Source: Chloroflexota bacterium
GTDB taxonomy: Bacteria > Chloroflexota > Dehalococcoidia > UBA2979
NCBI GenBank assembly: GCA_002716405.1
Contig: PBBA01000006.1
Coordinates: 289,683-353,682 of the forward strand
Reading direction: 5' to 3'
DNA length: 64,000 nucleotides
A program made the position numbers and the translations under genes. Below, piece by piece: positions 9,454 through 59,207 of this stretch (its first letter is position 1; every line of letters begins with the position of its first letter). The notes beneath the pieces are model-generated. The model was not told where the DNA came from. It saw only the letters and a list, made by a program, of their open reading frames with translations, and searched no databases.

Positions 9454-9666
9454 TTACAAACGTAGTTTTCCATGTGATGGTTGACGACGACGCTGCTTAC
9501 CAGCTAATAAACGTTCTTCTTCCTCAATATCTTTGGGATCACAACGCTCACTGTCATGTACATAACCACACGCAATACATGTACCGAATTTTCCGTACCA
9601 ATCATCTTCAATTAACATGAGACCACGACATCTAGGACAATTCTTAGGTGGTTGACTCACTATCAT
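9454..9666 (-). CDS. Small zinc-ribbon protein with a basic C-terminal tail (70 aa), function unknown
   Basis: CPRC...(14)...CIAC four-Cys ribbon. AGGAG lies 7 nt upstream of the ATG. The ORF sits directly downstream of the c-di-AMP riboswitch. Confidence 0.6.
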   Translation of the reverse strand: MIVSQPPKNCPRCRGLMLIEDDWYGKFGTCIACGYVHDSERCDPKDIEEEERLLAGKQRRRQPSHGKLRL

Positions 9667-9715
9667 GCCTGCACTCCTATCTAGTGCTTCGGTATTTCCG
9701 AATTGGCCTGAAAAT

Positions 9716-9836
9716 TGCTTACGAGGTTAGCTGTCGGGTTCGGGTTGTCAGGACACCCGCTTTTCGAAAAAAGTTCACCCCAATTATTGGTTCCCCCGAT
9801 CTTGATTATAAATAAATAACCAAAGATTCAGCAGCT
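9716..9836 (-). promoter_or_regulatory. c-di-AMP riboswitch aptamer (ydaO/yuaA class)
   Basis: Minus-strand RNA reads UGCUGAAUC...GAUCGGGGGAACCAAUAAUUGGGGUGAAC...ACCCGAACCCGACAGCUAACCUCGUAAGCA. These match the conserved ydaO blocks as I recall them (GGGGGAnCCA, GGGGUGAAUC, CCGAAnCCGnCAGCUAACCUCGUAAGC). A closing helix UGCU/AGCA is present. Confidence 0.8.
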
Positions 9837-9871
9837 ATACAACCCAATTGGGTTGTGATTCTTTTAACAAG

Positions 9872-15709: not shown

Positions 15710-16375
15710 ATGCACAGTATCGGAATAATCGGAGGTACAGGTCCTGAAGGGCGTGGTCTCGCCACAAGATTTGCTATTGCAGGACATAAAATAATAATCG
15801 GAAGTCGTAATGAAAAGCGTGGACTAGATGTGGCTACTGAGCTTTCAGAGACTCTTAATAAATCATTTCCAGACAAACTGAATATATCAGGAACAAACAA
15901 CCGTGATACAGCTAGAGAATCAGATATTGCTATTATTACAGTTCCCTACGATGCCCATTTAGAAACTCTATCCGAATTATCACCTTATCTATCAGATAAA
16001 ATAGTAATAGATGCTGTAGTACCAGTAAAATTTGAACGTGGCCCTCGACCTATTCCCGTTGAAGCTGGTTCTGCAACTGAAGAAGCTGCAAAATTACTTG
16101 AAAATAGCTTTGTAATTGGAGCGTTCCACAATTTATCTGCTGAAAAACTCTTAGAACCAAACTTATCGTTAGACTCTGATGTACTTATAACTGGTAATAG
16201 TAAAGATGCTAAAAATATAGCTATCAATCTCGCAAATGAAATTAAAGGGGTTCGTGCTATCGATGCAGGTCCATTAAGATATTCACAATTTATAGAGAAT
16301 CTAACTGTACTGTTGATAGGAATCAATGGACGATATAAAACAGAAACAGGATTAAAAATTTCGGGAATTGATTAG
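15710..16375 (+). CDS. npdG: NADPH-dependent F420 reductase (NpdG/Fno family)
   Basis: IGIIGGTGPEGRGLATRFAIAGHKIIIGSR dinucleotide fold, ~220 aa, followed by cofE. Confidence 0.78.
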   Translation: MHSIGIIGGTGPEGRGLATRFAIAGHKIIIGSRNEKRGLDVATELSETLNKSFPDKLNISGTNNRDTARESDIAIITVPYDAHLETLSELSPYLSDKIVIDAVVPVKFERGPRPIPVEAGSATEEAAKLLENSFVIGAFHNLSAEKLLEPNLSLDSDVLITGNSKDAKNIAINLANEIKGVRAIDAGPLRYSQFIENLTVLLIGINGRYKTETGLKISGID

Positions 16376-16388
16376 AGAGATTATTAAA

Positions 16389-17147
16389 ATGAAAAAAACA
16401 GAAATTCGAGTAATACCTGTTAATGGAATACCAATTATACAACCAAATGATGACTTAGCATTACAGATTCTCGAGGCAGCGAAAACGCAAAATTTAGAGA
16501 TTGTAGAAGATGATGTTATCGTTATTACGCAGAGAATCGTTTCAAGGGCTGAGGATCGTATACGGCCTTTAGATGAATTCAATCCTTCACCTTTTGCTTT
16601 ACAGTATGCAAAAAACTATCAAAAGGACCCGAGAGTGGTTGAAGCTGTATTAACTGAATCTAAAAGGGTTATTAGGCAAGTCGGTGGTGTATTGATTACA
16701 GAAACACACCATGGATTTAAATGCGCCAATGCAGGAGTAGATGCGTCTAATGTAGGTAACTCTGAAATGATTTCACTCCTACCAATCGATCCAGACAAAT
16801 CGTGCAACTTAATTCGAAAAAATTTCCTAAAACACAATGGATCTAATGTTGCTGTAATTATGACTGATACATTTGGTCGTCCTTGGAGGCACGGTCAAAC
16901 AAATGTAGCTATTGGTGTTGCAGGAATGCTACCTTTTCGTGATTACATTGGCGAGGTAGATATGGACGGAAGAGAGTTAGCAGTAACAACAATATGTGTT
17001 GCTGATGAATTAGCTGGGATGGCTGAATTAGTCATGGGTAAAAGTGATGGTATTCCAGTCGCCATAATCAAAGGGTACTCATTTCCAAGAGGTAATGGTT
17101 CATCTAAAGAAATTGTTCGTGAAACGGCATTAGATCTTTTTCCCTAA
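16389..17147 (+). CDS. cofE: Coenzyme F420-0:L-glutamate ligase (CofE/FbiB N-domain family)
   Basis: VVITQRIVSRAEDR, GFKCANAGVDASN and TDTFGRPWRHGQTNVAIG. The track ORF starts at TTG 16368, overlapping the npdG stop; the ATG at 16389 is the alternative used here. Confidence 0.78.
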   Translation: MKKTEIRVIPVNGIPIIQPNDDLALQILEAAKTQNLEIVEDDVIVITQRIVSRAEDRIRPLDEFNPSPFALQYAKNYQKDPRVVEAVLTESKRVIRQVGGVLITETHHGFKCANAGVDASNVGNSEMISLLPIDPDKSCNLIRKNFLKHNGSNVAVIMTDTFGRPWRHGQTNVAIGVAGMLPFRDYIGEVDMDGRELAVTTICVADELAGMAELVMGKSDGIPVAIIKGYSFPRGNGSSKEIVRETALDLFP

Positions 17148-19236: not shown

Positions 19237-19995
19237 ATGCGAACTGGGCTAGAAGATATTTTAGGCGAACAAACTGCAGAAGAACTAAATCCTAATACTA
19301 TTCAAGAGAGAAAAAAACGAGCATTAGTAATCGCGGCTCATCCTGATGATGCTGACCTAGGCGTAGGCGGAACAATGGCGCAATTAGTCCTTGATCAATG
19401 GAAAGTTCGTTATCTAATCGTAACTGATGGAGCAAAAGGAACGACTGATATAAATAAAACATACGATCAAATTGTTAGTACACGACAGCAGGAACAAATT
19501 AACGCTGCATCCTATACAGGTGTAACCGATATAAAATTTTTAGGATTCCCTGACGGCGAATTAGATTCATCAAAAAACTTAAGAAAAACCTTGGTTAAAG
19601 AAATACGTCAATTCCAACCATTTAGAGTTTACACACATGATCCTGAACCGATTATTATCAACAACCAGGTAATCAATCACCCTGATCACAGGATCACAGG
19701 ACTCGAAACTATCAATGCTATTTATCCATCAATAAGAGATCCTAAATATTTCCCTGAACATTTTCATGAGGGTATTTTACCTCATAAAGTTAAAGAATTA
19801 ATTCTTTGGGGAACAAACAATGTTAATTATGAAATTGATATCACTTCAACCATAAAGGATAAATTACTTGCATTAATGGCTCATGAAAGCCAATTCGATT
19901 TCACATCAAAAAAACTTTCGCAAATCGCTAAAGAATGGACTGAAAATAATGAAAAGTTTACAGAGGCATTTCGAAGAATTGTCATTTTTGAGTAA
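19237..19995 (+). CDS. LmbE/PIG-L family N-acetylglucosaminyl deacetylase
   Basis: VIAAHPDDADLGVGG and HPDH motifs. Confidence 0.8.
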   Translation: MRTGLEDILGEQTAEELNPNTIQERKKRALVIAAHPDDADLGVGGTMAQLVLDQWKVRYLIVTDGAKGTTDINKTYDQIVSTRQQEQINAASYTGVTDIKFLGFPDGELDSSKNLRKTLVKEIRQFQPFRVYTHDPEPIIINNQVINHPDHRITGLETINAIYPSIRDPKYFPEHFHEGILPHKVKELILWGTNNVNYEIDITSTIKDKLLALMAHESQFDFTSKKLSQIAKEWTENNEKFTEAFRRIVIFE

Positions 19996-23252: not shown

Positions 23253-24284
23253 ATGAAATCTCCAGCATTTGGATTAAACAGATTTGATTTTTCAACTCCA
23301 AGTTTATTTGCTCAAGATGTAAAGCGTGCTGAAAGTCTTGGATGGGATTATGCTTTTGTCCCTGATTCACAGTTACGTCGACATGATACCTACGTATTGT
23401 TAGCATCCGCAGCTGTCAATACTTCTTCAATTAATCTTGGCACCCTACTTGCAAACCCAATCACAAGGCACTTAACAGTTACTGCTGGATCAATTGCAAC
23501 TATCGATGAAGTCTCAGAAGGAAGGGCCGTATTGGGGCTTGGGATAGGAGATACTGCTGTTCGACTAGCAGGATTAAGTCCAGCGAAAGTATCAACTCTT
23601 GAAAAAAGTACAAAATCAATTCGTGATCTTCTTAGAGGAAAGGAAATTGAACTTGGTGCAGTAAAACCATCCTACCTTCCACACCATCGCCCAGTTCCGG
23701 TATGGATTGCTGCTGCAGGCCCTCGTACTTTGAGAGCAGCAGGACGAGTAGCCGATGGTGTTTTTATCCGTGTTGGAATGCATCTTGAAAATATAAAATT
23801 TTCAGTTGAACAAATTTTCTCTGGTGCACGTGAAGTAGGTAGAGATCCTAACGAAATTAAATTGGGACTGGTAGTCCACACAATCCTAGAGGATAATATT
23901 GAGAAAGCACTCTTGATGGGTAAATCGATGGCAGCCGGATATTATGAATATTCTCCATTTCTCTTTGACAAACCTTCCATCCCATGGGAAGGACCTGACA
24001 TTGAAAATCTTAAAACCAAAGTACATCCTGATTTTCACCATCATCCAGATCTTGTTGAGTCAGGTAATTTAGTTAACTTCTTACCTGATAGTGCAGCGTA
24101 CTCATTTGCTGCACTAGGATCAGCAGAAGCAATAACAGAGCAATTTAAGAACGTACTCACACAAGGAATAGAATTCGATATTATCGTACCGCATCCTGTT
24201 CCTAATCCAATACCAAAATCATATACAGAAAAACAAACTTACATGGAAATTATGGGCAAAAACGTACTCCCAAAATTAAGATAA
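23253..24284 (+). CDS. Luciferase-like monooxygenase (LLM) family oxidoreductase, probably F420-dependent
   Basis: LLM TIM-barrel-type sequence (GRAVLGLGIGDT..., WIAAAGPRTLRAAGRVADG). F420 dependence is inferred from family resemblance and the F420 genes in the window. Confidence 0.65.
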   Translation: MKSPAFGLNRFDFSTPSLFAQDVKRAESLGWDYAFVPDSQLRRHDTYVLLASAAVNTSSINLGTLLANPITRHLTVTAGSIATIDEVSEGRAVLGLGIGDTAVRLAGLSPAKVSTLEKSTKSIRDLLRGKEIELGAVKPSYLPHHRPVPVWIAAAGPRTLRAAGRVADGVFIRVGMHLENIKFSVEQIFSGAREVGRDPNEIKLGLVVHTILEDNIEKALLMGKSMAAGYYEYSPFLFDKPSIPWEGPDIENLKTKVHPDFHHHPDLVESGNLVNFLPDSAAYSFAALGSAEAITEQFKNVLTQGIEFDIIVPHPVPNPIPKSYTEKQTYMEIMGKNVLPKLR

Positions 24285-24310
24285 ACAAACAGTAGACAAT
24301 TGGAGTGAAT

Positions 24311-24646
24311 ATGGAAATAAAATTAACCTTAACTGAAAGAGGCAACGATCATCATGCGGCAATTCGACAATTATTGCAGGAAGCGATCGCAGAGGCTGGA
24401 GTAAGCTCAACGACTGTTGATGAAACAATTATCCGAAGTGATGAAGAAGCTATAGCTATCAAATGTCTTGGTTCACCAACTATAAGAATTAATGGTTTAG
24501 ATATTGAATATCGGGAAAGAGAACCTGAAGAAACAACCGCAGGTGTTCGTTATTACAACACTCCAGCTGGCTGGAAGTCTATCCCTGAAAAAGGGTTGAT
24601 TATCAGAGCCCTAGAAAGAGCACTAGCAGATGAGGAAAATATCTAA
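24311..24646 (+). CDS. Small thioredoxin-fold (DUF2703-like) protein lacking the usual cysteines
   Basis: LGSPTIRINGLDIE resembles the ...FLGSPT(V/I)R(V/I)NG.D(V/I)E... core of small CxxC/CP-containing proteins. The ATG at 24311 has GGAG 5 nt upstream. Confidence 0.4.
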   Translation: MEIKLTLTERGNDHHAAIRQLLQEAIAEAGVSSTTVDETIIRSDEEAIAIKCLGSPTIRINGLDIEYREREPEETTAGVRYYNTPAGWKSIPEKGLIIRALERALADEENI

Positions 24647-24661
24647 GGAAAAAATTTTAAT

Positions 24662-25009
24662 ATGAAAAAATCGAAAAAAAACCTATTCTCTTCTCGTATT
24701 AAAAAACTTTCTGAAAATGTGCGTAAAAACGCTAAGAATTTTACAGAGCAAGATTCTGAATACTCTCAATATAGTGATGCACTAAAAGATGCCACAAAAA
24801 AAATTTCTCCTCGCCTCAAACGTGCTGCTAAAAAAACTGAAGATTACATAAAAACCCATGAAGAAGAAATTAATGAAAACGCACAAAAGGGTGGGAAGTT
24901 CATTGCCCAACAAGCATTACGCATGGCTACCCCTCCAGTATTAAGGCCTGCTATTGATGCAATGAAAGAAGAACTAGGCAAAAAGAAGAGATCTAATAGC
25001 AAAGATTAA
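24662..25009 (+). CDS. Lys-rich hypothetical protein
   Basis: ORF only; low-complexity basic termini. Confidence 0.35.
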   Translation: MKKSKKNLFSSRIKKLSENVRKNAKNFTEQDSEYSQYSDALKDATKKISPRLKRAAKKTEDYIKTHEEEINENAQKGGKFIAQQALRMATPPVLRPAIDAMKEELGKKKRSNSKD

Positions 25010-26250
25010 TTAAGATCTATTCCCAATACTTGGGTCATCTCTAAAAGGGCAGGGACACCTATTTGAGATGGAATTTGATCTTCTACAATTAGCACAGCTA
25101 AGTCCCTTAATGTATCGATCGCTAAAGGTGTATTTAAATCATCATCCATAGCATCCATAAAAACATTACGTAGAGGTTGCAATTTAGTTATATTACTGCC
25201 GCCGCTATTATTATTTTTGATAGCATTTTTAAATAATTCAATATCGTTTTGTGCTTGATTTAAATAATCTTCAGAAAAATTTCTGTCGACTCTATAATGC
25301 TCCATAAGCAAGCTCAATCGAATCGCATTACCTGAAAAGCCATCATTTAGAAGCTCATGTACTTTTACTAAATTCCCGAGTGATTTAGACATTTTTTCAC
25401 CCTTTAATTGCATTGTCCCGTTATGAACCCAGTAAGAAACACTTGGTTGAACACCTGTTAGCGATTCAGTTTGTACTATCTCAGAATCATGATGTGGGTA
25501 AGCCAAGTCTTTTCCACCACCATGAATATCGAATTGATCACCTAAATTGGAACGGGCCATGACAGAACATTCTATATGCCAGCCTGGCCTTCCGTTCCCC
25601 CAAGGAGATTCATACATTGCTTCAGAATGTTCTGATGGTTGCCACAATAGAAAATCAGAACTATTTACCTTGAGATGTTCTGGTTCATCTGGCATTGTGT
25701 CTGTTCGAGGCATCGTAGATAGTTTGTCAAAGCTATAGCCAGATAGAACCCCAAATGATCTAGTATTTGACGTATTGAAAAATACATAACCATCAACGTA
25801 ATAAGCAAACCCTTGCTTCTCAAGAACAATGATGCTTTCAATAATTTCTTGAATGTAATCTGAAACAAGTGGGAATTGATCAGGGCGCATAACGTTTAAT
25901 GCATCCATTTCATCCAAGTAAATTGAATGATTTTGTTCAGTCAAGTCTGATATGGAGATATCTAATTCAACAGATTTTCGAATCATATCATCATCAATAT
26001 CTGTTATATTTTGTATGTGAGTAACTTCATAGCCTGAAAATTCTAACCAACGATGCAAAGTATCTTGTACAGAATAAACCAATGCATGGCCCAAATGTCC
26101 TACGTCATAGGGAGTAATCCCACAAACATACATCGTGGCTCTACCTTTGTTCAGGGGGGAAAATAATTCTTTGGTACGTGATTTTGAATTGTACAACCTA
26201 AAACCATCCATATGACGTGGCTTTAAGTCAAAATTTAATCTCCCGGTCAA
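25006..26250 (-). CDS. Short class-I cysteine ligase (CysRS/MshC family; MshC-like architecture)
   Basis: YVCGITPYDVGHLGHA (HIGH), GRPGWHIEC, KMSKSLGN and HYRVDRNFS. The protein ends at ...LGIDLN with no C-terminal anticodon-binding extension, as I recall for MshC (~410-420 aa). Confidence 0.7.
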   Translation of the reverse strand: MTGRLNFDLKPRHMDGFRLYNSKSRTKELFSPLNKGRATMYVCGITPYDVGHLGHALVYSVQDTLHRWLEFSGYEVTHIQNITDIDDDMIRKSVELDISISDLTEQNHSIYLDEMDALNVMRPDQFPLVSDYIQEIIESIIVLEKQGFAYYVDGYVFFNTSNTRSFGVLSGYSFDKLSTMPRTDTMPDEPEHLKVNSSDFLLWQPSEHSEAMYESPWGNGRPGWHIECSVMARSNLGDQFDIHGGGKDLAYPHHDSEIVQTESLTGVQPSVSYWVHNGTMQLKGEKMSKSLGNLVKVHELLNDGFSGNAIRLSLLMEHYRVDRNFSEDYLNQAQNDIELFKNAIKNNNSGGSNITKLQPLRNVFMDAMDDDLNTPLAIDTLRDLAVLIVEDQIPSQIGVPALLEMTQVLGIDLN

Positions 26251-26765: not shown

Positions 26766-27914
26766 CTAGTTATTGCTCTCAATTCTAATTGATACTCTTG
26801 TAAGATTTTTCATGCCAAGATCGCGTTCAATCGAGAGAATACCGCTATAACCTAGAGTAGAATTTTGAAAACCCAATAAACTTGAAGAACCTCTAGACAT
26901 ATCCTCAACCAATTCCCATCCTTGAGTATTTAATAAATCTCGATATAGATCTGTTATCGCTGAAACTGTCTCGTCAGAGTGTAACGAGCTCTGAAAATTT
27001 GCAGTCCCTTGATCTATAGACCAATTAATATCAGTAACTATCGCACCTTCTAAGAAAAGAAATTTTGCAGGAAATTTTTTAGGAATAGGGCGTGATATAG
27101 ATTCTTCTGATAGCTTTACATCAAATTCATTATCCGAGTCGATATTTAACCGGTACATTATGGATGACTTTGCATCGGTAACTTCATCTAAGCTTGCCAT
27201 TGCATCGTCAAGATCTGCTACAGAGCCAATTAAATTACCTTCAATTGATGTAATTATGTCACCAGCAATCAAGGAAGAATGGTACTGAGACTCTTTTATC
27301 ACTATGGAATTTTCTTCTTCTATGTACGTAAATGTAGGGAATGGTTCAATACTTCCGCGAGGAAGCTCCACAGAAATTGACTTTCCTGCGCGGAGAATTT
27401 CCATATCAATCTTTAAATCAGGAGGGAAAGCTTGAATCGTTACCAGGCCAGTTATGTTTGGATTTTCAGTATTCCTAAAGGAAACAACAGAAAAAGTATT
27501 ACTTGATTGTCCACCATCTAACTGCCACGGGCTAATATTCAATTGCTTCTGAATATCCTCTTCGACACTTAAAGCAGCAGCAGCAGTATCAAAAATCAAC
27601 CACACAACATGCGAACCATCCTGCTTCAAAACATGATAAGAGGCCAACAACTCCCCCTCAGGGTGAACAGGAAGGGCAATGGGTTCTTCGCGACCATCAA
27701 AACTAGAAAGATTTAACAAATATGATAAATATGGAGGTAAAGTTTTTTCAAAATAGAATACTTGGTTGCCGAAGTCACTAGCTTCAAATAAACGAAAATA
27801 TCTATCAGGTCCATTTGAAAAATCAGAAGAACTTTTTAGATTTTCATTATCACCAAAGCAAGACAAACCAAGACAAATAATAGGGATAATTAAAAAATAT
27901 ATTTTTTTCGACAT
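26766..27914 (-). CDS. Lipoprotein with a PDZ-like segment, unknown function
   Basis: MSKKIYFLIIPIICLGLSC lipobox; LIAGDIITSIEGNLIGSVADL PDZ-like. The first 25 codons of the track ORF overlap tRNA-His and are rejected. Confidence 0.6.
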   Translation of the reverse strand: MSKKIYFLIIPIICLGLSCFGDNENLKSSSDFSNGPDRYFRLFEASDFGNQVFYFEKTLPPYLSYLLNLSSFDGREEPIALPVHPEGELLASYHVLKQDGSHVVWLIFDTAAAALSVEEDIQKQLNISPWQLDGGQSSNTFSVVSFRNTENPNITGLVTIQAFPPDLKIDMEILRAGKSISVELPRGSIEPFPTFTYIEEENSIVIKESQYHSSLIAGDIITSIEGNLIGSVADLDDAMASLDEVTDAKSSIMYRLNIDSDNEFDVKLSEESISRPIPKKFPAKFLFLEGAIVTDINWSIDQGTANFQSSLHSDETVSAITDLYRDLLNTQGWELVEDMSRGSSSLLGFQNSTLGYSGILSIERDLGMKNLTRVSIRIESNN

Positions 27915-27927
27915 ATATACTCGTATA

Positions 27928-28004
27928 TGGGGTGGATGATGGGATTTGAACCCACGGTCTCCTGGGCCACAACCAGGCGCTTTAACCACTAAGCTACACC
28001 CACC
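27928..28004 (-). tRNA. tRNA-His (GUG), with encoded G-1 and CCA
   Basis: G-GUGGGUG-UA-GCUU-AGUGGUUA-AAGC-G-CCUGG-UUGUGGC-CCAGG-...-GUGGG-UUCAAAU-CCCAU-CAUCCAC-C-CCA cloverleaf. Confidence 0.93.
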
Positions 28005-28092
28005 ATGTAAATCATTATCAACTAAATGATCGTATCATCTAGCCAGCAAGAGATCCCATTATGCAACTAATCAACAAAATAAAACACTGCTA

Positions 28093-28593
28093 TTAAAACT
28101 CTTTTGAAAGTTTTCGATATTTACCCTTAAAAAATAAAAGAGGATCGTCATCAGAATTATTCGAAGCAAAATCAACAACTTCACCCACAATTATCGTATG
28201 GTCACCACCTGGAAATTGATCTCTTATCTTGCATTCAGCAAATGCAATACAACCATCAAGTATCGGAGTCCCTAAAACACCCGTATGATAAGGAGTTCCA
28301 CTAAGAGGTTCTTCCATACGTCCATGTTTAGCAAAAAGAGTAGAAATATCTTCTTGATTTTCACCTAATATATTAACTGCAAATGAACTAGTGCCTGCCA
28401 AAGCTGTATGCATTGAAGCAGTTTTGGCAACACAAATTAATATTAATGGTGGATCTAACGATAATGAAGAAAATGCATTTGCCGTCATTCCATATAATTC
28501 TTCAGACTCAAGGGTAACAACCGTTACTCCTGTGGCAAAAATTCCCATCGTATCTCGAAATGATCTCGAATCCACCGATTTTTCTTCACTCAT
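28093..28593 (-). CDS. Flavin reductase-like (HpaC/split-barrel FMN-binding) protein
   Basis: FRDTMGIFATGVTVVT and ...GDHTIIVGEVV motifs. Start taken at MSEEKS, because the track ORF's first 20 codons overlap tRNA-Sec. Confidence 0.8.
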   Translation of the reverse strand: MSEEKSVDSRSFRDTMGIFATGVTVVTLESEELYGMTANAFSSLSLDPPLILICVAKTASMHTALAGTSSFAVNILGENQEDISTLFAKHGRMEEPLSGTPYHTGVLGTPILDGCIAFAECKIRDQFPGGDHTIIVGEVVDFASNNSDDDPLLFFKGKYRKLSKEF

Positions 28594-28624
28594 CCAACAC
28601 CTCAAGTTCAAAATAATCACTACC

Positions 28625-28721
28625 TGGCGGGAATGCGTGGGAGTCGAACCCACCCAGGACTACGACGTAGCCCCGCAACGGTTTTGAAGACCGCGAACAC
28701 CACCAGGCATTATCCACTCCC
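28625..28721 (-). tRNA. selC: tRNA-Sec (anticodon UCA), selC-type
   Basis: 97 nt: GGGAGUGG AU AAUGCC-UGGU-GGUGUU (6-bp D stem, 4-nt loop), GCGGU-CUUCAAA-ACCGU (UCA anticodon), a long variable arm GGGGCUAC-GUC-GUAGUCCU, GUGGG-UUCGACU-CCCAC, and an extended acceptor ending G-CCA. Confidence 0.88.
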
Positions 28722-28813
28722 ACACATATCATACTTACATATTAGGAATTGGAGTATCGCTTAATCATGTATTATTATGCATAAAGCTAATTATATAAGA
28801 GCAAGGAAAAAAA

Positions 28814-29317
28814 TTGACAATTGAACAACCCTCAGAAGAAGATCTTTCACAAGCTTCACCAGAAAATATTAATAAGATGCGTAAATTCGTTAATAACTTT
28901 GCCGAAAAAAGTGGTAGCTTTTTACACCCACAATCTGAGATTACAGAATTTCTAGTCATAGGTTTGGCAAAAAATATTGATGAGGTTGGAAGACCTCTTT
29001 GCCCTTGTATGTTTTTTGAGGACAAAGAAGAAGAAATAGAAAAGAAATTCTGGATTTGTCCATGTGAAGAAATGCAAAGATGGAAATATTGTCACTGACT
29101 ACTTTTTTGCGACGAGGAAGGTCTTCCCGTCACAGAGCATTTACCAGAAGATCATGAAGGAAGAGAGGCGTATGGTCTCCGTAAAGATCCTGACCCAAGT
29201 AAAGGTAGAGCCCTAGGAAGGCTTGAGGAAAAGCAAGGTAGATCGCTTAAAAAAGGTCAACGATCTAGTAATGAATCCAATCAGACTGGGAACAAAAATC
29301 CAAAAAATATTATCTAA
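28814..29317 (+). CDS. Ferredoxin:thioredoxin reductase catalytic-subunit homologue, predicted selenoprotein (in-frame UGA at 29096..29098 read as Sec)
   Basis: CPC-(16)-CPC-(8)-CH[UGA]-LLF matches the FTRc CPC...CPC...CHC.LF pattern exactly. 72 stop-free codons follow the UGA in an AT-rich genome. A SECIS-like hairpin lies 12 nt after the UGA, and tRNA-Sec is 93 nt upstream. The track ORF stops at 29098. Confidence 0.7.
29111..29131 (+). promoter_or_regulatory. Bacterial SECIS-like hairpin
   Basis: GACG(A)GGAA-GGUC-UUCC-CGUC: an 8-bp stem with one bulged A and a GGUC apical loop starting 24 nt after the U of UGA. Confidence 0.6.
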
Positions 29318-29637
29318 AGTACCGCATCGATATGCTTAGCAAGTTCACTCTTTGGACGAAATCCTATAACTTGACCAACATTTTCTCCGCCTTTAAAAAG
29401 CAACAATGTAGGAATTGAACGAATCCCATACTTACCAGATACTTGAGGATTTTCATCAGTATTTAACTTCACAAATTTAACTTGTCCATCATAGTCGTCA
29501 GATAGTTCTTCGACGACTGGAGCTACCATCCTGCAAGGTCCACACCACGGTGCCCAAAAGTCTACCAAAACAGGTAGTTCAGAATTTAAAACATCAACTT
29601 CAAATGTTGAGTCTGTCGTATCAGTAGGGTGTGCCAT
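29314..29637 (-). CDS. trxA: Thioredoxin
   Basis: [18 protein letters not shown], 107 aa. Its 3' end overlaps the extended FTRc ORF by 4 nt (convergent). Confidence 0.93.
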
Positions 29638-29718
29638 TTTTCACCTGCTTTCTATTCTCTTAACTAATACCATATAGTACGCAACCTAGGACTTGTTGGC
29701 CAGTTTTACAAATATAAT

Positions 29719-30717
29719 TTAAGTATAGCGAGATGCAATTATCGTACGAACTTGTTGCAGTATACCTAACTGATCTGCTTGAGCGGCATTAATTATTGCA
29801 TTATGCACTGCCACAGCATCACTACGACCATGACCAATGAAAACAGATCCTTCAACACCAAGTAAAGGTGCAGCGCCATATCTCCGGTAGTCTAAATTGG
29901 ATCTAACTTCACGAAGAGATGGTAAAAGTAAAGCACCACCCAAACGAGAACGAAAAGATTTATGAGCTGTTGATCTCATAATATCAAACAGCATTGAAAT
30001 AGTGCCTTCGATAATTTTTAAGGCATTATTACCTGTAAATCCATCCGTAACAATTACCTGACAATCTCCAGTAACTATATCTCGTCCTTCGATATTACCT
30101 ATAAAGTTTATGAATGAATCATTTTCCAACTTCTCGTAAGCTTCCTGAATAAGAGTAGAGCCTTTTGATGCCTCCTCACCTATAGATAAAAGACCAACTT
30201 TCGGTGAACCAAATCCGTGAGTCGCTTTCATATATACTGTACCCATATCCGCAAATTGAACCAGATGTGAAGCCTTGGATTCTGCATTAGCTCCCCCATC
30301 AATTAATAAAGATGGACCACCGGGTGTAGGTAAAACTATTGCTAGCCCAGGGCGTTGTACGCCTGGTAGTCTCCCTAAATGAAGCAGGGCCGCTGCTAAC
30401 ATTGCACCGGTATTACCCATAGAAACAAATGCACTAGCTTGCTTACTTTTTACTAGTTCCATTCCGACCCATATCGAAGAGTCTGTACGATTACGAATCT
30501 GCATACCAACTTGCTCATCCATTGCTATCACGTCAGATGCGTGCACAATCTCTAATGAATCAGGAAAATCACCTAATTCATTTATTGCTTTTTCCAAAAT
30601 ATCCTGGTTGCCAATTAAAAAAATTTTAATACCTTGATTAGCAGCTGAGAAAGCACCTGCGACGGCTGCTTCAGGGGCAGCATCACCTCCCATTCCATCA
30701 ATCGCTATAACGGTCAA
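29719..30717 (-). CDS. plsX: Phosphate acyltransferase PlsX
   Basis: IAIDGMGGDAAPEA start, GNTGA and TDGFTGN motifs. Confidence 0.92.
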   Translation of the reverse strand: MTVIAIDGMGGDAAPEAAVAGAFSAANQGIKIFLIGNQDILEKAINELGDFPDSLEIVHASDVIAMDEQVGMQIRNRTDSSIWVGMELVKSKQASAFVSMGNTGAMLAAALLHLGRLPGVQRPGLAIVLPTPGGPSLLIDGGANAESKASHLVQFADMGTVYMKATHGFGSPKVGLLSIGEEASKGSTLIQEAYEKLENDSFINFIGNIEGRDIVTGDCQVIVTDGFTGNNALKIIEGTISMLFDIMRSTAHKSFRSRLGGALLLPSLREVRSNLDYRRYGAAPLLGVEGSVFIGHGRSDAVAVHNAIINAAQADQLGILQQVRTIIASRYT

Positions 30718-57167: not shown

Positions 57168-57923
57168 TTATACAAATTCGATAGCTCTAAATGATTCCTG
57201 ATACCTAATTTCGCTATCTTTACTGTTCTGAACATCACCATTATCACGTTCCTTAATAACTCTTTCTCGATAACGTGCCATAAGCATTTCTTCCGTACGC
57301 CCTTGCATTTGGGATTCATGAGCAAGAATTGAACGAATCTTAATCTTCATTACTGATGTTACATCTACCAAATAATCTGGATTATCTGTTCCAGCTAGCA
57401 ATAAAGCACTTGGCCTATGCGGTAATAACTTCTCGAATTTATGTTCTGGGTAAAATAAATGATCGTCTGCTGCAGGGTAAATAGCATCGTACGTCGCCCT
57501 ACCAGTTCTACGATGATCTCTATGATTAAAACCTGAACGAAAACCATCCCAGGTAATTACAAGATCTGGACGATGTAATCGTAGCTGACGTACCAATAAC
57601 CCTCTTAACTCATTAGAATTTTCTATATATCCATCAGCGAATCCCATGAATGTTGGCTCTTCAGCACCAAGAATATCAGCAGCTTTCCTCTGCTCCTGCT
57701 CGCGCTCAAAAGCTAATTGTTGAGCGGTAACAGAAGGATTTTTTGTCCCTTTATTTCCACTGGTAGTCACAACAATATGAACCGACCAACCCTTACTGCT
57801 TAATAATGCGACAGTACCACCACAAACAAATTCATTGTCATCAGGGTGCGCCATTACTACTAAAGCACGCTTTTGTCCGTTGACAGTCATACGTTCGATT
57901 AAATCTTCTGTTTGATTAGACAT
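57168..57923 (-). CDS. LmbE/PIG-L family deacetylase (MshB-like)
   Basis: LVVMAHPDDNEFVCGG and HRDHRR motifs. Immediately downstream of the MshA-like glycosyltransferase. Confidence 0.75.
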   Translation of the reverse strand: MSNQTEDLIERMTVNGQKRALVVMAHPDDNEFVCGGTVALLSSKGWSVHIVVTTSGNKGTKNPSVTAQQLAFEREQEQRKAADILGAEEPTFMGFADGYIENSNELRGLLVRQLRLHRPDLVITWDGFRSGFNHRDHRRTGRATYDAIYPAADDHLFYPEHKFEKLLPHRPSALLLAGTDNPDYLVDVTSVMKIKIRSILAHESQMQGRTEEMLMARYRERVIKERDNGDVQNSKDSEIRYQESFRAIEFV

Positions 57924-57953: not shown

Positions 57954-59207
57954 CTATGCACCTGCAACTTCTGAGGTAACAGAAATTATTGATTCATCTT
58001 CAATAAGTAATCGGAAGACATTGCACAATTGTATCGCAACTGCATCCCAGCTATAACTTCTCATGTTTTCAACACCTATCTTACCAAAATCACTACGTAA
58101 TTTAGGATCATTAAGCAGTAAGTTTATTTTTTCACCAAATTGATCTGAACTCCCTGGTGGTATTAAAAATCCTGCCCGACCATGTTCAACTGTTAAAGCA
58201 AGACCTCCAACATTGGAAGCTACTACAGGAACTCCGGAAGCCATAGCCTCTACTGCAACAAGACCAAATGATTCAGAAAAAGACGGGATGACAACTACGT
58301 CAGCTGCGCGATAATAAATAGGTAGTTTCGAGTGATCAACAGAACCAATAAATTTAACTTTATGCGCAATACCTACTTGCATCGCAATATCTTTTAAACG
58401 ACTAATCTCAACACTGGCTGCTTTGTCACCTCCTATTATAACAAGTTGGTACGGCATCTCTGGATCAACATAAGACATTGCACGAATTAAAACATCCAAT
58501 CCTTTAAGTGGTTCCACTCTACCAACAGCTAGAACAATTTTATCTTCATTGTAAAACTTCAACTTTTCTCTAGCATAACTCTGCAATTTTTCTTCAAAAA
58601 AATCAGGCCCTACTCCAAGTGGGACCACACTAATATTATCTTCAGACACACCATAAATTATTCTCATAATTTCTTTCTCATCGGAAGTGGCGGCTATAAT
58701 GCGATCTAACTTGCCAATCAATCTTCGCTCTGTATCCAGTCGCACCTGCGTTTCTTTTTCTGAAGCTAATGCCTCTAGTTTAACTTCCGCTAGTGTGTGA
58801 AACATCCCAATATGTGGGATATCCCAATCATGCGCTAACGTTTCACCTGCAAGCATAGACAGCCAATAGTGTGAAAAAATTAATGCGTAATCATCATCAA
58901 AATTCTCAACAATTTTCTTTATATTTGTTGTAAAACTATTAATCCATAATGAAAGATCGTTCTTGTTAACTACTGCAATAGGCCCGGCATCAATATGAAA
59001 TAAACGTAATCCTTCATCAAGCTCTATAATCGAAGGAACTTCCTGCTCTTCACGTCTAGTAAAAATGTCTACTTGAAAACCTTTATCTGTCAGCCTTTTA
59101 GACACTTCGCGTATATATACATTCATACCACCCGAAACGGATCCACCTAAGATCGCTAAAGGAGATGTGTGAAAAGATAGCAGTGCAATACGAGGAAATT
59201 TATTCAT
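57954..59207 (-). CDS. GT4 glycosyltransferase, MshA-like (D-inositol-3-phosphate glycosyltransferase type)
   Basis: N-terminus IALLSFHTSPLAILGGSVSGGMNVYIREVSKRL...VDIFTRR resembles the recalled MshA signature HTSPL..PG.GD.GGMNVY...FTR. C-terminal GT-B motif ESFGLVAVEAMASGVPVV. Confidence 0.7.
   Translation of the reverse strand: MNKFPRIALLSFHTSPLAILGGSVSGGMNVYIREVSKRLTDKGFQVDIFTRREEQEVPSIIELDEGLRLFHIDAGPIAVVNKNDLSLWINSFTTNIKKIVENFDDDYALIFSHYWLSMLAGETLAHDWDIPHIGMFHTLAEVKLEALASEKETQVRLDTERRLIGKLDRIIAATSDEKEIMRIIYGVSEDNISVVPLGVGPDFFEEKLQSYAREKLKFYNEDKIVLAVGRVEPLKGLDVLIRAMSYVDPEMPYQLVIIGGDKAASVEISRLKDIAMQVGIAHKVKFIGSVDHSKLPIYYRAADVVVIPSFSESFGLVAVEAMASGVPVVASNVGGLALTVEHGRAGFLIPPGSSDQFGEKINLLLNDPKLRSDFGKIGVENMRSYSWDAVAIQLCNVFRLLIEDESIISVTSEVAGA

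Follow-up and report, generated by a model that had tools for sequence, protein, structure and literature searches.

Does a tRNA gene with a UCA anticodon, lying beside a reading frame that is interrupted by UGA, mark a site at which selenocysteine (Sec) enters a protein? The gene in question occupies positions 28625..28721 of the minus strand in a 64,000-nucleotide stretch of a Chloroflexota bacterium (Dehalococcoidia; contig PBBA01000006.1), hereafter the window. Divergent to it lies ftrC, the gene for a homologue of the catalytic subunit of ferredoxin:thioredoxin reductase (FTR), here called FTRc. Judged by its sequence and predicted fold, the tRNA gene is a genuine bacterial-type tRNA-Sec gene (selC), and we put at roughly 90% the probability that it encodes a bacterial-type tRNA-Sec whose visible client is the divergent FTRc gene.

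The selC gene and its probable UGA-containing client

ARAGORN called a tRNA-SeC(tca) with its anticodon at position 35, and only one other tRNA gene, a tRNA-His(gtg), in the window (coordinates of all features are given in Table 1). In an Rfam scan at gathering thresholds the bacterial tRNA-Sec model RF01852 matched 28629..28721 (-) over all of its positions (1-91 of 91) with 72.6 bits against a threshold of 47 (E = 6e-13), outscoring the general tRNA model within its clan. The minimum free energy (MFE) fold has -40.9 kcal/mol. Read on the minus strand, the 5' part of the molecule is GGGAGUGG AU AAUGCC UGGU GGUGUU C GCGGU CUUCAAA ACCGU UG and the 3' part is CGGGGCUAC GUC GUAGUCCUG G GUGGG UUCGACU CCCAC GCAUUCCC G CCA. 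The fold shows a D arm with a 6-bp stem (AAUGCC/GGUGUU) and a 4-nt loop (UGGU), an anticodon stem of 5 bp, a variable arm made of a 9-bp helix and a 3-nt loop, and a T stem of 5 bp (GUGGG/CCCAC). The discriminator base is G, followed by an encoded CCA. Each acceptor strand has 8 nt (GGGAGUGG / GCAUUCCC), so that the 8+5 spacing of acceptor and T arm is kept; seven of these layers are standard pairs and the eighth is a G.G opposition, which the Rfam alignment draws as a one-base bulge.

Type-II tRNAs for serine or leucine have a 7+5 acceptor/T arm and a D stem of 3-4 bp with a larger loop. The 6-bp D stem, the 4-nt loop, the 8-nt acceptor strands and the UCA anticodon rule out such an identity. 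The sequence-level features that define bacterial tRNA-Sec are present in the UCA loop, the 8+5 spacing, the D and variable arms, G73, the RF01852 score and a UGA-containing client, and the one departure is the lack of Watson-Crick pairing at layer 8. An earlier note on this DNA, made from the letters alone, had listed the CUUCAAA loop, the D arm, the long variable arm and the G-CCA end, all of which we found in place, and both programs agree with its choice of tRNA-Sec over a type-II tRNA. Its extended acceptor holds in length and spacing, but not in the pairing of the eighth layer.

We then compared the tRNA with two sets of relatives. Genome relatives were obtained by scanning contigs with an alignment of the FTRc protein and keeping the best 80 loci, ranked by similarity to a Sec-type query; all 80 of the matches listed are Dehalococcoidia or Chloroflexota metagenome-assembled genomes (MAGs), the best of those listed having 80% identity to the window. 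Metagenome relatives (120 loci) were found with a pattern of the anticodon arm and T arm only. Among 37 distinct tRNA-Sec relatives of 97 nt, 96.5% of the cells of the 8+5 cloverleaf are standard pairs (99.5% in the D stem). Changes on both sides of a pair were seen at 18 pairs, namely five of the six in the D stem, all nine in the variable arm and four in the acceptor, and the standard acceptor pairs with compensatory changes include pairs 3, 6 and 7. None of 500 shuffles equalled this value and registers that were slid out of place paired only 43-55%. The tRNA therefore changes by compensatory substitution and not by decay.

The eighth acceptor layer (window positions 28714 and 28636, tRNA positions 8 and 86) is non-standard in 35 of the 37 relatives. 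Across 100 distinct tRNAs it is G.G in 40, C.A in 31, C.U in 13 and A.A in 3, with about 11 standard pairs. As the mismatch recurs in several clades, it is a conserved feature and not damage. The layer occupies position 7:66, and in E. coli it is C7-G66, together with G49.U65 and C50-G64, that marks tRNA-Sec for SelB and against EF-Tu (PMC9976931). By analogy, the mismatch at 7:66 in the window's tRNA might have a similar role towards EF-Tu and SelB.

The proposed client begins on the opposite strand. ORF 28814..29098 (+), an open reading frame (ORF) with a TTG start, closes with a TGA at codon 95, and the frame runs on to a TAA at 29315..29317. When the TGA is read as a residue, the Pfam family PF02943 (FeThRed_B) matches with 83.1 bits against a cut-off of 22, and its domain (residues 19-103) crosses the TGA. 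A protein search gave 1542 homologues, and homologues start at the same residue as the TTG at 28814. The closest full-length ones are Dehalococcoidia proteins with Cys at this position (...KYCHCLLFV.EEG.PITE.LP.DHEGRE.YG...) and align through the TGA, while the nearest database relatives are 94-residue gene calls (P0062 and P0069) that end there. FTR chains in the PDB match the window protein at E = 1e-20. Its C63, C65, C82, C84, C93 and U95 align to Cys55, 57, 74, 76, 85 and 87 of the Synechocystis protein (1DJ7), completing the CPC...CPC...CHC set of the catalytic subunit. Cys57 and Cys87 reportedly (Dai et al. in 2007) form the redox-active disulfide, with Cys87 touching the [4Fe-4S] cluster.

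Among the species representatives of the best 80 loci, codon 95 is TGA in 70 and TGC in 10, a proportion biased towards Sec forms by the ranking with a Sec-type query. The 72 codons that follow the TGA are kept at the protein level across 70 species. The curated family of double-Sec FtrB proteins, NF041072, was considered and rejected for the window protein (48.6 bits against 160): it has a single TGA, and the equivalent of Cys57 is a Cys codon.

We also observed that Sec-type FTRc proteins read CH-U-LLF-C where Cys-type proteins read CH-C-LLF-V (window 29096..29110 (+); loci L005-L084). The Cys four residues past the Sec position covaries with Sec, the exceptions being L013 and L015, which have Thr, and L065, which has Val.

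Just past the UGA the mRNA can form a hairpin resembling a bacterial Sec insertion sequence (SECIS). Its stem begins 12 nt past the UGA and its apical loop, GGUC, 21 nt past it. The bSECISearch description of a bacterial SECIS is a hairpin just 3' of the UGA, with an apical loop some 16-37 nt away and a G among the first two loop bases; the hairpin lies within these distances and its loop starts with GG. No base of its 12-nt core, GGAAGGTCTTCC, varies among 55 distinct Sec-type genes from loci of 38-73% GC, whereas in ten Cys-type genes the same codons drift synonymously (as in GAGGAGGGGCTGCCG and GAAGGCATGCCG). The lower stem changes by compensation, with U-A becoming C-G at one pair and G-C becoming U-G or C-G at another. 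In the alignment 95% of the cells of this hairpin are paired, and three pairs show double changes (32 double-change cells). None of 500 shuffles equalled it and slid registers reached at most 63%. Such a conserved hairpin directly past the UGA implies a putative SelB-type, site-specific decoding signal.

Collectively, the domain that crosses the TGA, the Cys homologues that align through it, the match to Cys87 and the hairpin bear out the earlier suggestion that FTRc is the probable client, and its UGA is most likely read by the neighbouring tRNA-Sec.

Gene order and transcription around selC

The local gene order is tRNA-His(-), flavin reductase(-), tRNA-Sec(-), ftrC(+), trx(-), plsX(-), methyltransferase(-) and GNAT(+). 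From the 5' end of the tRNA at 28721 to the TTG of FTRc at 28814 there are 93 positions, in agreement with the distance given in the earlier note, with 92 nt between the two divergent genes. The shadow ORFs that it placed over the tRNA, 28093..28653 (-) and 28391..28687 (+), do exist. In the first of these the true start of the flavin-reductase gene is the ATG at 28593, as judged from the Pfam domain, which begins at residue 16, and L001, a near-identical contig, has a gene call of 167 aa that backs this start. The flavin-reductase gene is kept as a neighbour of the tRNA-Sec only in near-identical contigs (L001, L002 and L099).

Table 1. Coordinates of the selC region and of related features (window positions unless a locus is named).
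Feature	Position	Strand	Basis
selC, tRNA-Sec(UCA), 97 nt, CCA encoded	28625..28721	-	ARAGORN, Rfam, MFE fold, covariation
Anticodon UCA, tRNA positions 35-37, inside loop CUUCAAA	28685..28687	-	ARAGORN, fold
FTRc, ferredoxin:thioredoxin reductase catalytic-subunit homologue, 167 codons, TTG start, TGA codon 95	28814..29317	+	PF02943, homologues, PDB
Putative Sec codon UGA, third Cys of C-H-C, equivalent to Cys87 of Synechocystis FTRc	29096..29098	+	alignments
SECIS-like hairpin GACG-A-GGAA[GGUC]UUCC-CGUC	29111..29131	+	fold, comparative pairing
Candidate -10 box TATGAT (inferred promoter element), ending 7 nt upstream of the mature 5' end	28728..28733	-	
Thioredoxin gene (WCGPC), convergent with FTRc, stop codons overlapping	29314..29637	-	PF00085, 115.9 bits
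plsX, member of the selC/ftrC/trx/plsX/methyltransferase block	29719..30717	-	conserved block
Flavin-reductase-domain gene, start 31 nt past the tRNA-Sec 3' end	28093..28593	-	PF01613, 147.5 bits
tRNA-His(GUG), downstream of the flavin-reductase gene	27928..28003	-	ARAGORN, Rfam
Thioredoxin-reductase-like ORF in relatives	L008 8969..9919; L009 7950..8945; L010 4806..5756	-	by eye

The segment selC/ftrC/trx/plsX/methyltransferase recurs in genomes of widely differing GC. Does the closeness of the tRNA and its client then have a function? The spacer of 92 nt could hold a divergent, co-regulated unit in which the supply of tRNA-Sec tracks the demand of the client, an arrangement that we consider unlikely. 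In its favour, the orientation is always divergent where the pair occurs, with 0.4-4.0 kb between tRNA and UGA in 14 genome and 6 metagenome loci of 38-73% GC, and none of nine Cys-type ftrC loci among the best 80 has a tRNA-Sec upstream. However, among those 80 an opposite-strand tRNA-Sec lies 0.4-4.0 kb upstream in only 12 of the 56 Sec-type loci that have at least 4.2 kb of upstream sequence. When the loci were approached from the tRNA, a Sec-type ftrC lay upstream of the same tRNA type in 6 of 34 metagenome loci; counting only those whose flank reaches 2.4 kb or more, the figure is 3 of 10. These counts reject the idea that selC and ftrC always stand side by side. In many loci other genes intervene, among them an enoyl-CoA hydratase gene and a trxB-like gene, and the spacer is unconserved except for a -10-like box close to the tRNA. 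In L003 the contig ends within the tRNA-Sec, which lies 1.2 kb upstream of ftrC.

Also against a regulatory unit, the tRNA-Sec remains beside trx where ftrC is absent: in the metagenome contigs L107, L123, L130, L144, L154, L173 and L195 a same-strand trx is the immediate upstream neighbour of a tRNA-Sec of the window's type and no ftrC intervenes, which suggests that the trx-selC linkage is ancestral or more general. A convergent trx follows ftrC in 25 of 68 loci among the best 80. Judged from gene order, trx (together with plsX) is the stable neighbour of selC in this lineage, and ftrC appears to intervene in a subset only. The adjacency of tRNA and ftrC is therefore most likely inherited synteny within a trx-selC-plsX thiol-redox block, in which ftrC has lodged beside trx, and a regulatory unit devoted to the tRNA and its client is less likely.

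In several high-GC relatives the gene between the tRNA-Sec and the Sec-type ftrC is an ORF that by eye resembles thioredoxin reductase, with an N-terminus reading GGGPAG....

The -10-like box of the window is TATGAT. In 49 distinct upstream sequences of the window's tRNA type the bases T(-12)A(-11)nnA(-8)T(-7) are enriched, and a TAnnnT that ends 7 nt (+/-1) before the mature 5' end is present in 29 of the 49. The same motif was found in 2 of 36 and 1 of 26 sequences from two other tRNA-Sec clades and in 1 of 31 from non-Sec tRNAs of the same loci. A generic sigma-70 and terminator scan of 27800..29800 gave no minus-strand site, and the box went unreported there; the matches that it did give were fewer than expected from shuffles and no terminator was among them. 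There is no evident -35 element upstream of the box. If TATGAT is a -10 box, its position suggests a transcription start on G+1 or an adjacent base, which would give a leaderless tRNA. Eukaryotic tRNA-Sec genes likewise have their transcription start at nucleotide 1 of the mature tRNA. On the downstream side, the same scan found no terminator between the tRNA-Sec and the flavin-reductase gene (28594..28624 (-)), and it is possible that the two are co-transcribed.

These features can be joined into one reading, in which a leaderless tRNA-Sec with an unusually long acceptor stem, transcribed from a TAnnAT box, would bypass RNase P, as its eukaryotic counterparts do, its layer 8 would be a widespread EF-Tu-rejection/SelB-identity element that replaces C7-G66, and Sec-type FTRc, with selenium at the Cys87 position and the covarying Cys four residues on, would be the predominant form in the class. 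As a whole we regard this combination as doubtful.

Elsewhere in the window we observed several features of other kinds. A c-di-AMP riboswitch (RF00379, 84.2 bits) at 9701..9843 (-) is followed by a 70-aa ORF at 9454..9666 (-) with two CxxC pairs, zinc-ribbon-like and an unusual gene to find downstream of such a riboswitch. Genes resembling MshC/CysS, MshA and deacetylases of the BshB/MshB type (25006..26250 (-), 57954..59207 (-), 57168..57923 (-) and 19237..19995 (+)) suggest a possible pathway for a low-molecular-weight thiol. All fall under the NCBIfam equivalog cut-offs for mycothiol and bacillithiol enzymes, and the CysS-like gene clears the cysS cut-off (385 against 340) and may simply encode cysteinyl-tRNA synthetase. 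Genes related to F420 lie at 15710..17147 (+) and 23253..24284 (+); the set comprises ORFs that by eye resemble an NADPH-dependent F420 reductase and CofE, and an LLM-class F420-dependent oxidoreductase whose NCBIfam matches are under the cut-offs.

Reading of the UGA codon

TGA is the stop of 20 of the 72 ORFs of at least 100 aa, those of ribosomal-protein genes included. Scans of split ORF pairs separated by one TGA and of intergenic gaps, which could miss an N-terminal Sec in very short proteins, yielded a single convincing gene with an in-frame TGA in the window, FTRc. As TGA is still an ordinary stop and FTRc the sole client found in the window, decoding would be site-specific and not a genome-wide reassignment. 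The earlier note's call to consider UGA recoding across the whole genome is to this extent overstated.

A 113-aa ORF at 24305..24646 (+) scores 60.6 bits, against a cut-off of 70, with NF049942, the 'DF family (seleno)protein'. It is a Cys version without an in-frame TGA.

For charging, conversion and delivery we infer the established pathway. Seryl-tRNA synthetase (SerRS) would use G73 and the long variable arm to load serine onto the tRNA, SelA would turn the Ser-tRNA into Sec-tRNA with selenophosphate from SelD, and SelB would bring it to the ribosome, recruited by the hairpin 12 nt past UGA95. Sec would then take the place of Cys87, which in the Cys57-Cys87 redox pair, the reductant of thioredoxin, is the residue that touches the cluster. 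The resulting FTR, with a Cys65-Sec95 selenenylsulfide, would reduce the thioredoxin that is encoded next door.

Several results weigh against this account. The single-sequence fold of the tRNA gains only modestly over shuffles (z = -1.98), and its T and anticodon stems, partly fixed by the search pattern, are invariant among the relatives and give no covariation signal. The single-sequence fold of the hairpin is no better than shuffles (z = -0.49), and RNAalifold on the SECIS alignment returned another, weak structure without covariation; the case for the hairpin therefore rests on comparative evidence, and we retain it on the strength of its counted pairs and of the way in which Sec-type genes differ from Cys-type ones there. 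The ranking bias in the TGA count also belongs here. Lastly, motif regexes (validated on the E. coli SelA, SelD and SelB proteins) picked up no selA, selB or selD in the 64-kb window or the related loci, nor did tblastn with the E. coli proteins in the window; over 204 loci and the window together (2.06 Mb), the sole tblastn match was a C-terminal SelB fragment in L204, where it adjoins a tRNA-Sec of a different type. As the sel genes are not near selC in the window or the related loci, selC is taken to be unclustered with them in this lineage, and their presence in the window's genome is assumed. 

Could the tRNA instead be an opal suppressor shaped like tRNA-Sec, which delivers serine or another residue without selenium, either because SelA or SelD is absent or because it is allo-tRNA-like? 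Allo-tRNA-like species have a 12-bp acceptor/T arm split 8/4 or 9/3, and the Rfam alignment of the window's tRNA can also be read as eight pairs, a bulge and four pairs. The T stem GUGGG/CCCAC has 5 bp in every relative, an invariance that the search pattern itself imposed. What favours tRNA-Sec as the probable identity is the D arm, together with a client that bears a SECIS. The missing Sec machinery in the window and related loci, the non-Watson-Crick eighth layer and the non-standard acceptor/T geometries known among bacterial tRNA-Sec-like genes (PMC5330540) would all fit a suppressor. Against it, covariation maintains the signature of tRNA-Sec, namely a 6-bp D stem closed by a loop of 4 nt and an acceptor/T arm of 13 layers, the hairpin right past the UGA points to SelB-type decoding, and TGA is still a normal stop. 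An FTR with serine in place of the redox-active Cys87 would presumably be inactive. Moreover, Dehalococcoidia are documented users of Sec: the cultured Dehalogenimonas alkenigignens has selC and, apart from it, a gene cluster for Sec synthesis that also encodes SelB and a SelD which itself contains Sec (PMC4918011), and Dehalococcoidia MAGs with 46-49 selenoprotein genes have some of the richest bacterial selenoproteomes (PMC13326102). We regard a suppressor as very improbable.

The reading of the tRNA as a relic and of the TGA as a true stop, which would leave FTRc a truncated 94-residue protein or a pseudogene, agrees with the public gene callers, which end FTRc at the TGA (P0062 and P0069), and can be practically dismissed given the protein-level conservation of the 72 codons beyond it in 70 species, a nucleotide-invariant hairpin confined to TGA-type genes, compensatory substitution instead of decay in the tRNA, and the conserved C-terminal region that truncation would delete.

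If UGA95 is read as Sec, the 94-residue FTRc calls of public pipelines would be truncations of a 167-residue selenoprotein. The genome would decode UGA as Sec at specific sites, which makes other UGA-interrupted genes worth seeking in it. The trx-selC-ftrC block, the mismatch in the antideterminant box and the -10-like box could refine the picture of how bacteria make tRNA-Sec and keep it from EF-Tu.

Comparison with known systems

Little here is biologically new, as tRNA-Sec, the bacterial SECIS, Sec-containing FTR and the rich selenoproteomes of Dehalococcoidia have all been published. The prototype of RF01852 is E. coli selC. The two tRNAs share the CUUCAAA loop with its UCA anticodon, the 8+5 spacing, the two-nucleotide linker, the D arm, the variable arm, G73 and the CCA end. 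They differ at the eighth layer, which is C7-G66 in E. coli and G.G in the window, and at pairs 49:65 and 50:64, which are G.U and C-G in E. coli and G-C and U-A here. A further difference is that selC is not linked to selA or selB within the window.

In this respect the window resembles Dehalogenimonas alkenigignens, of the same class, in which selC lies apart from the selA/selB/selD cluster (PMC4918011). The tRNA-Sec of D. lykanthroporepellens is reported to have a 12-bp (7/5) acceptor/T arm (PMC5330540), whereas 8 nt separate the T stem from G73 in the window's tRNA. With eukaryotic tRNA-Sec the likeness is an analogy for a start at G+1 only, as the polymerase, the promoter and the domain of life differ.

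The client has its own precedent. A Sec-containing FTR was first reported in 2008 from two Global Ocean Sampling (GOS) reads (PMC2398784), and FTR with a CxU motif has since been listed in PMC9312934 and PMC13188914. The NF041072 family is curated for the double-Sec FtrB, while the window's FTRc would carry a single Sec and scores below its cut-off. With the CxU family of Sec-FTR the window shares an FTR homologue, a predicted Sec at a redox-active Cys position and a bacterial-type SECIS (PMC2398784).

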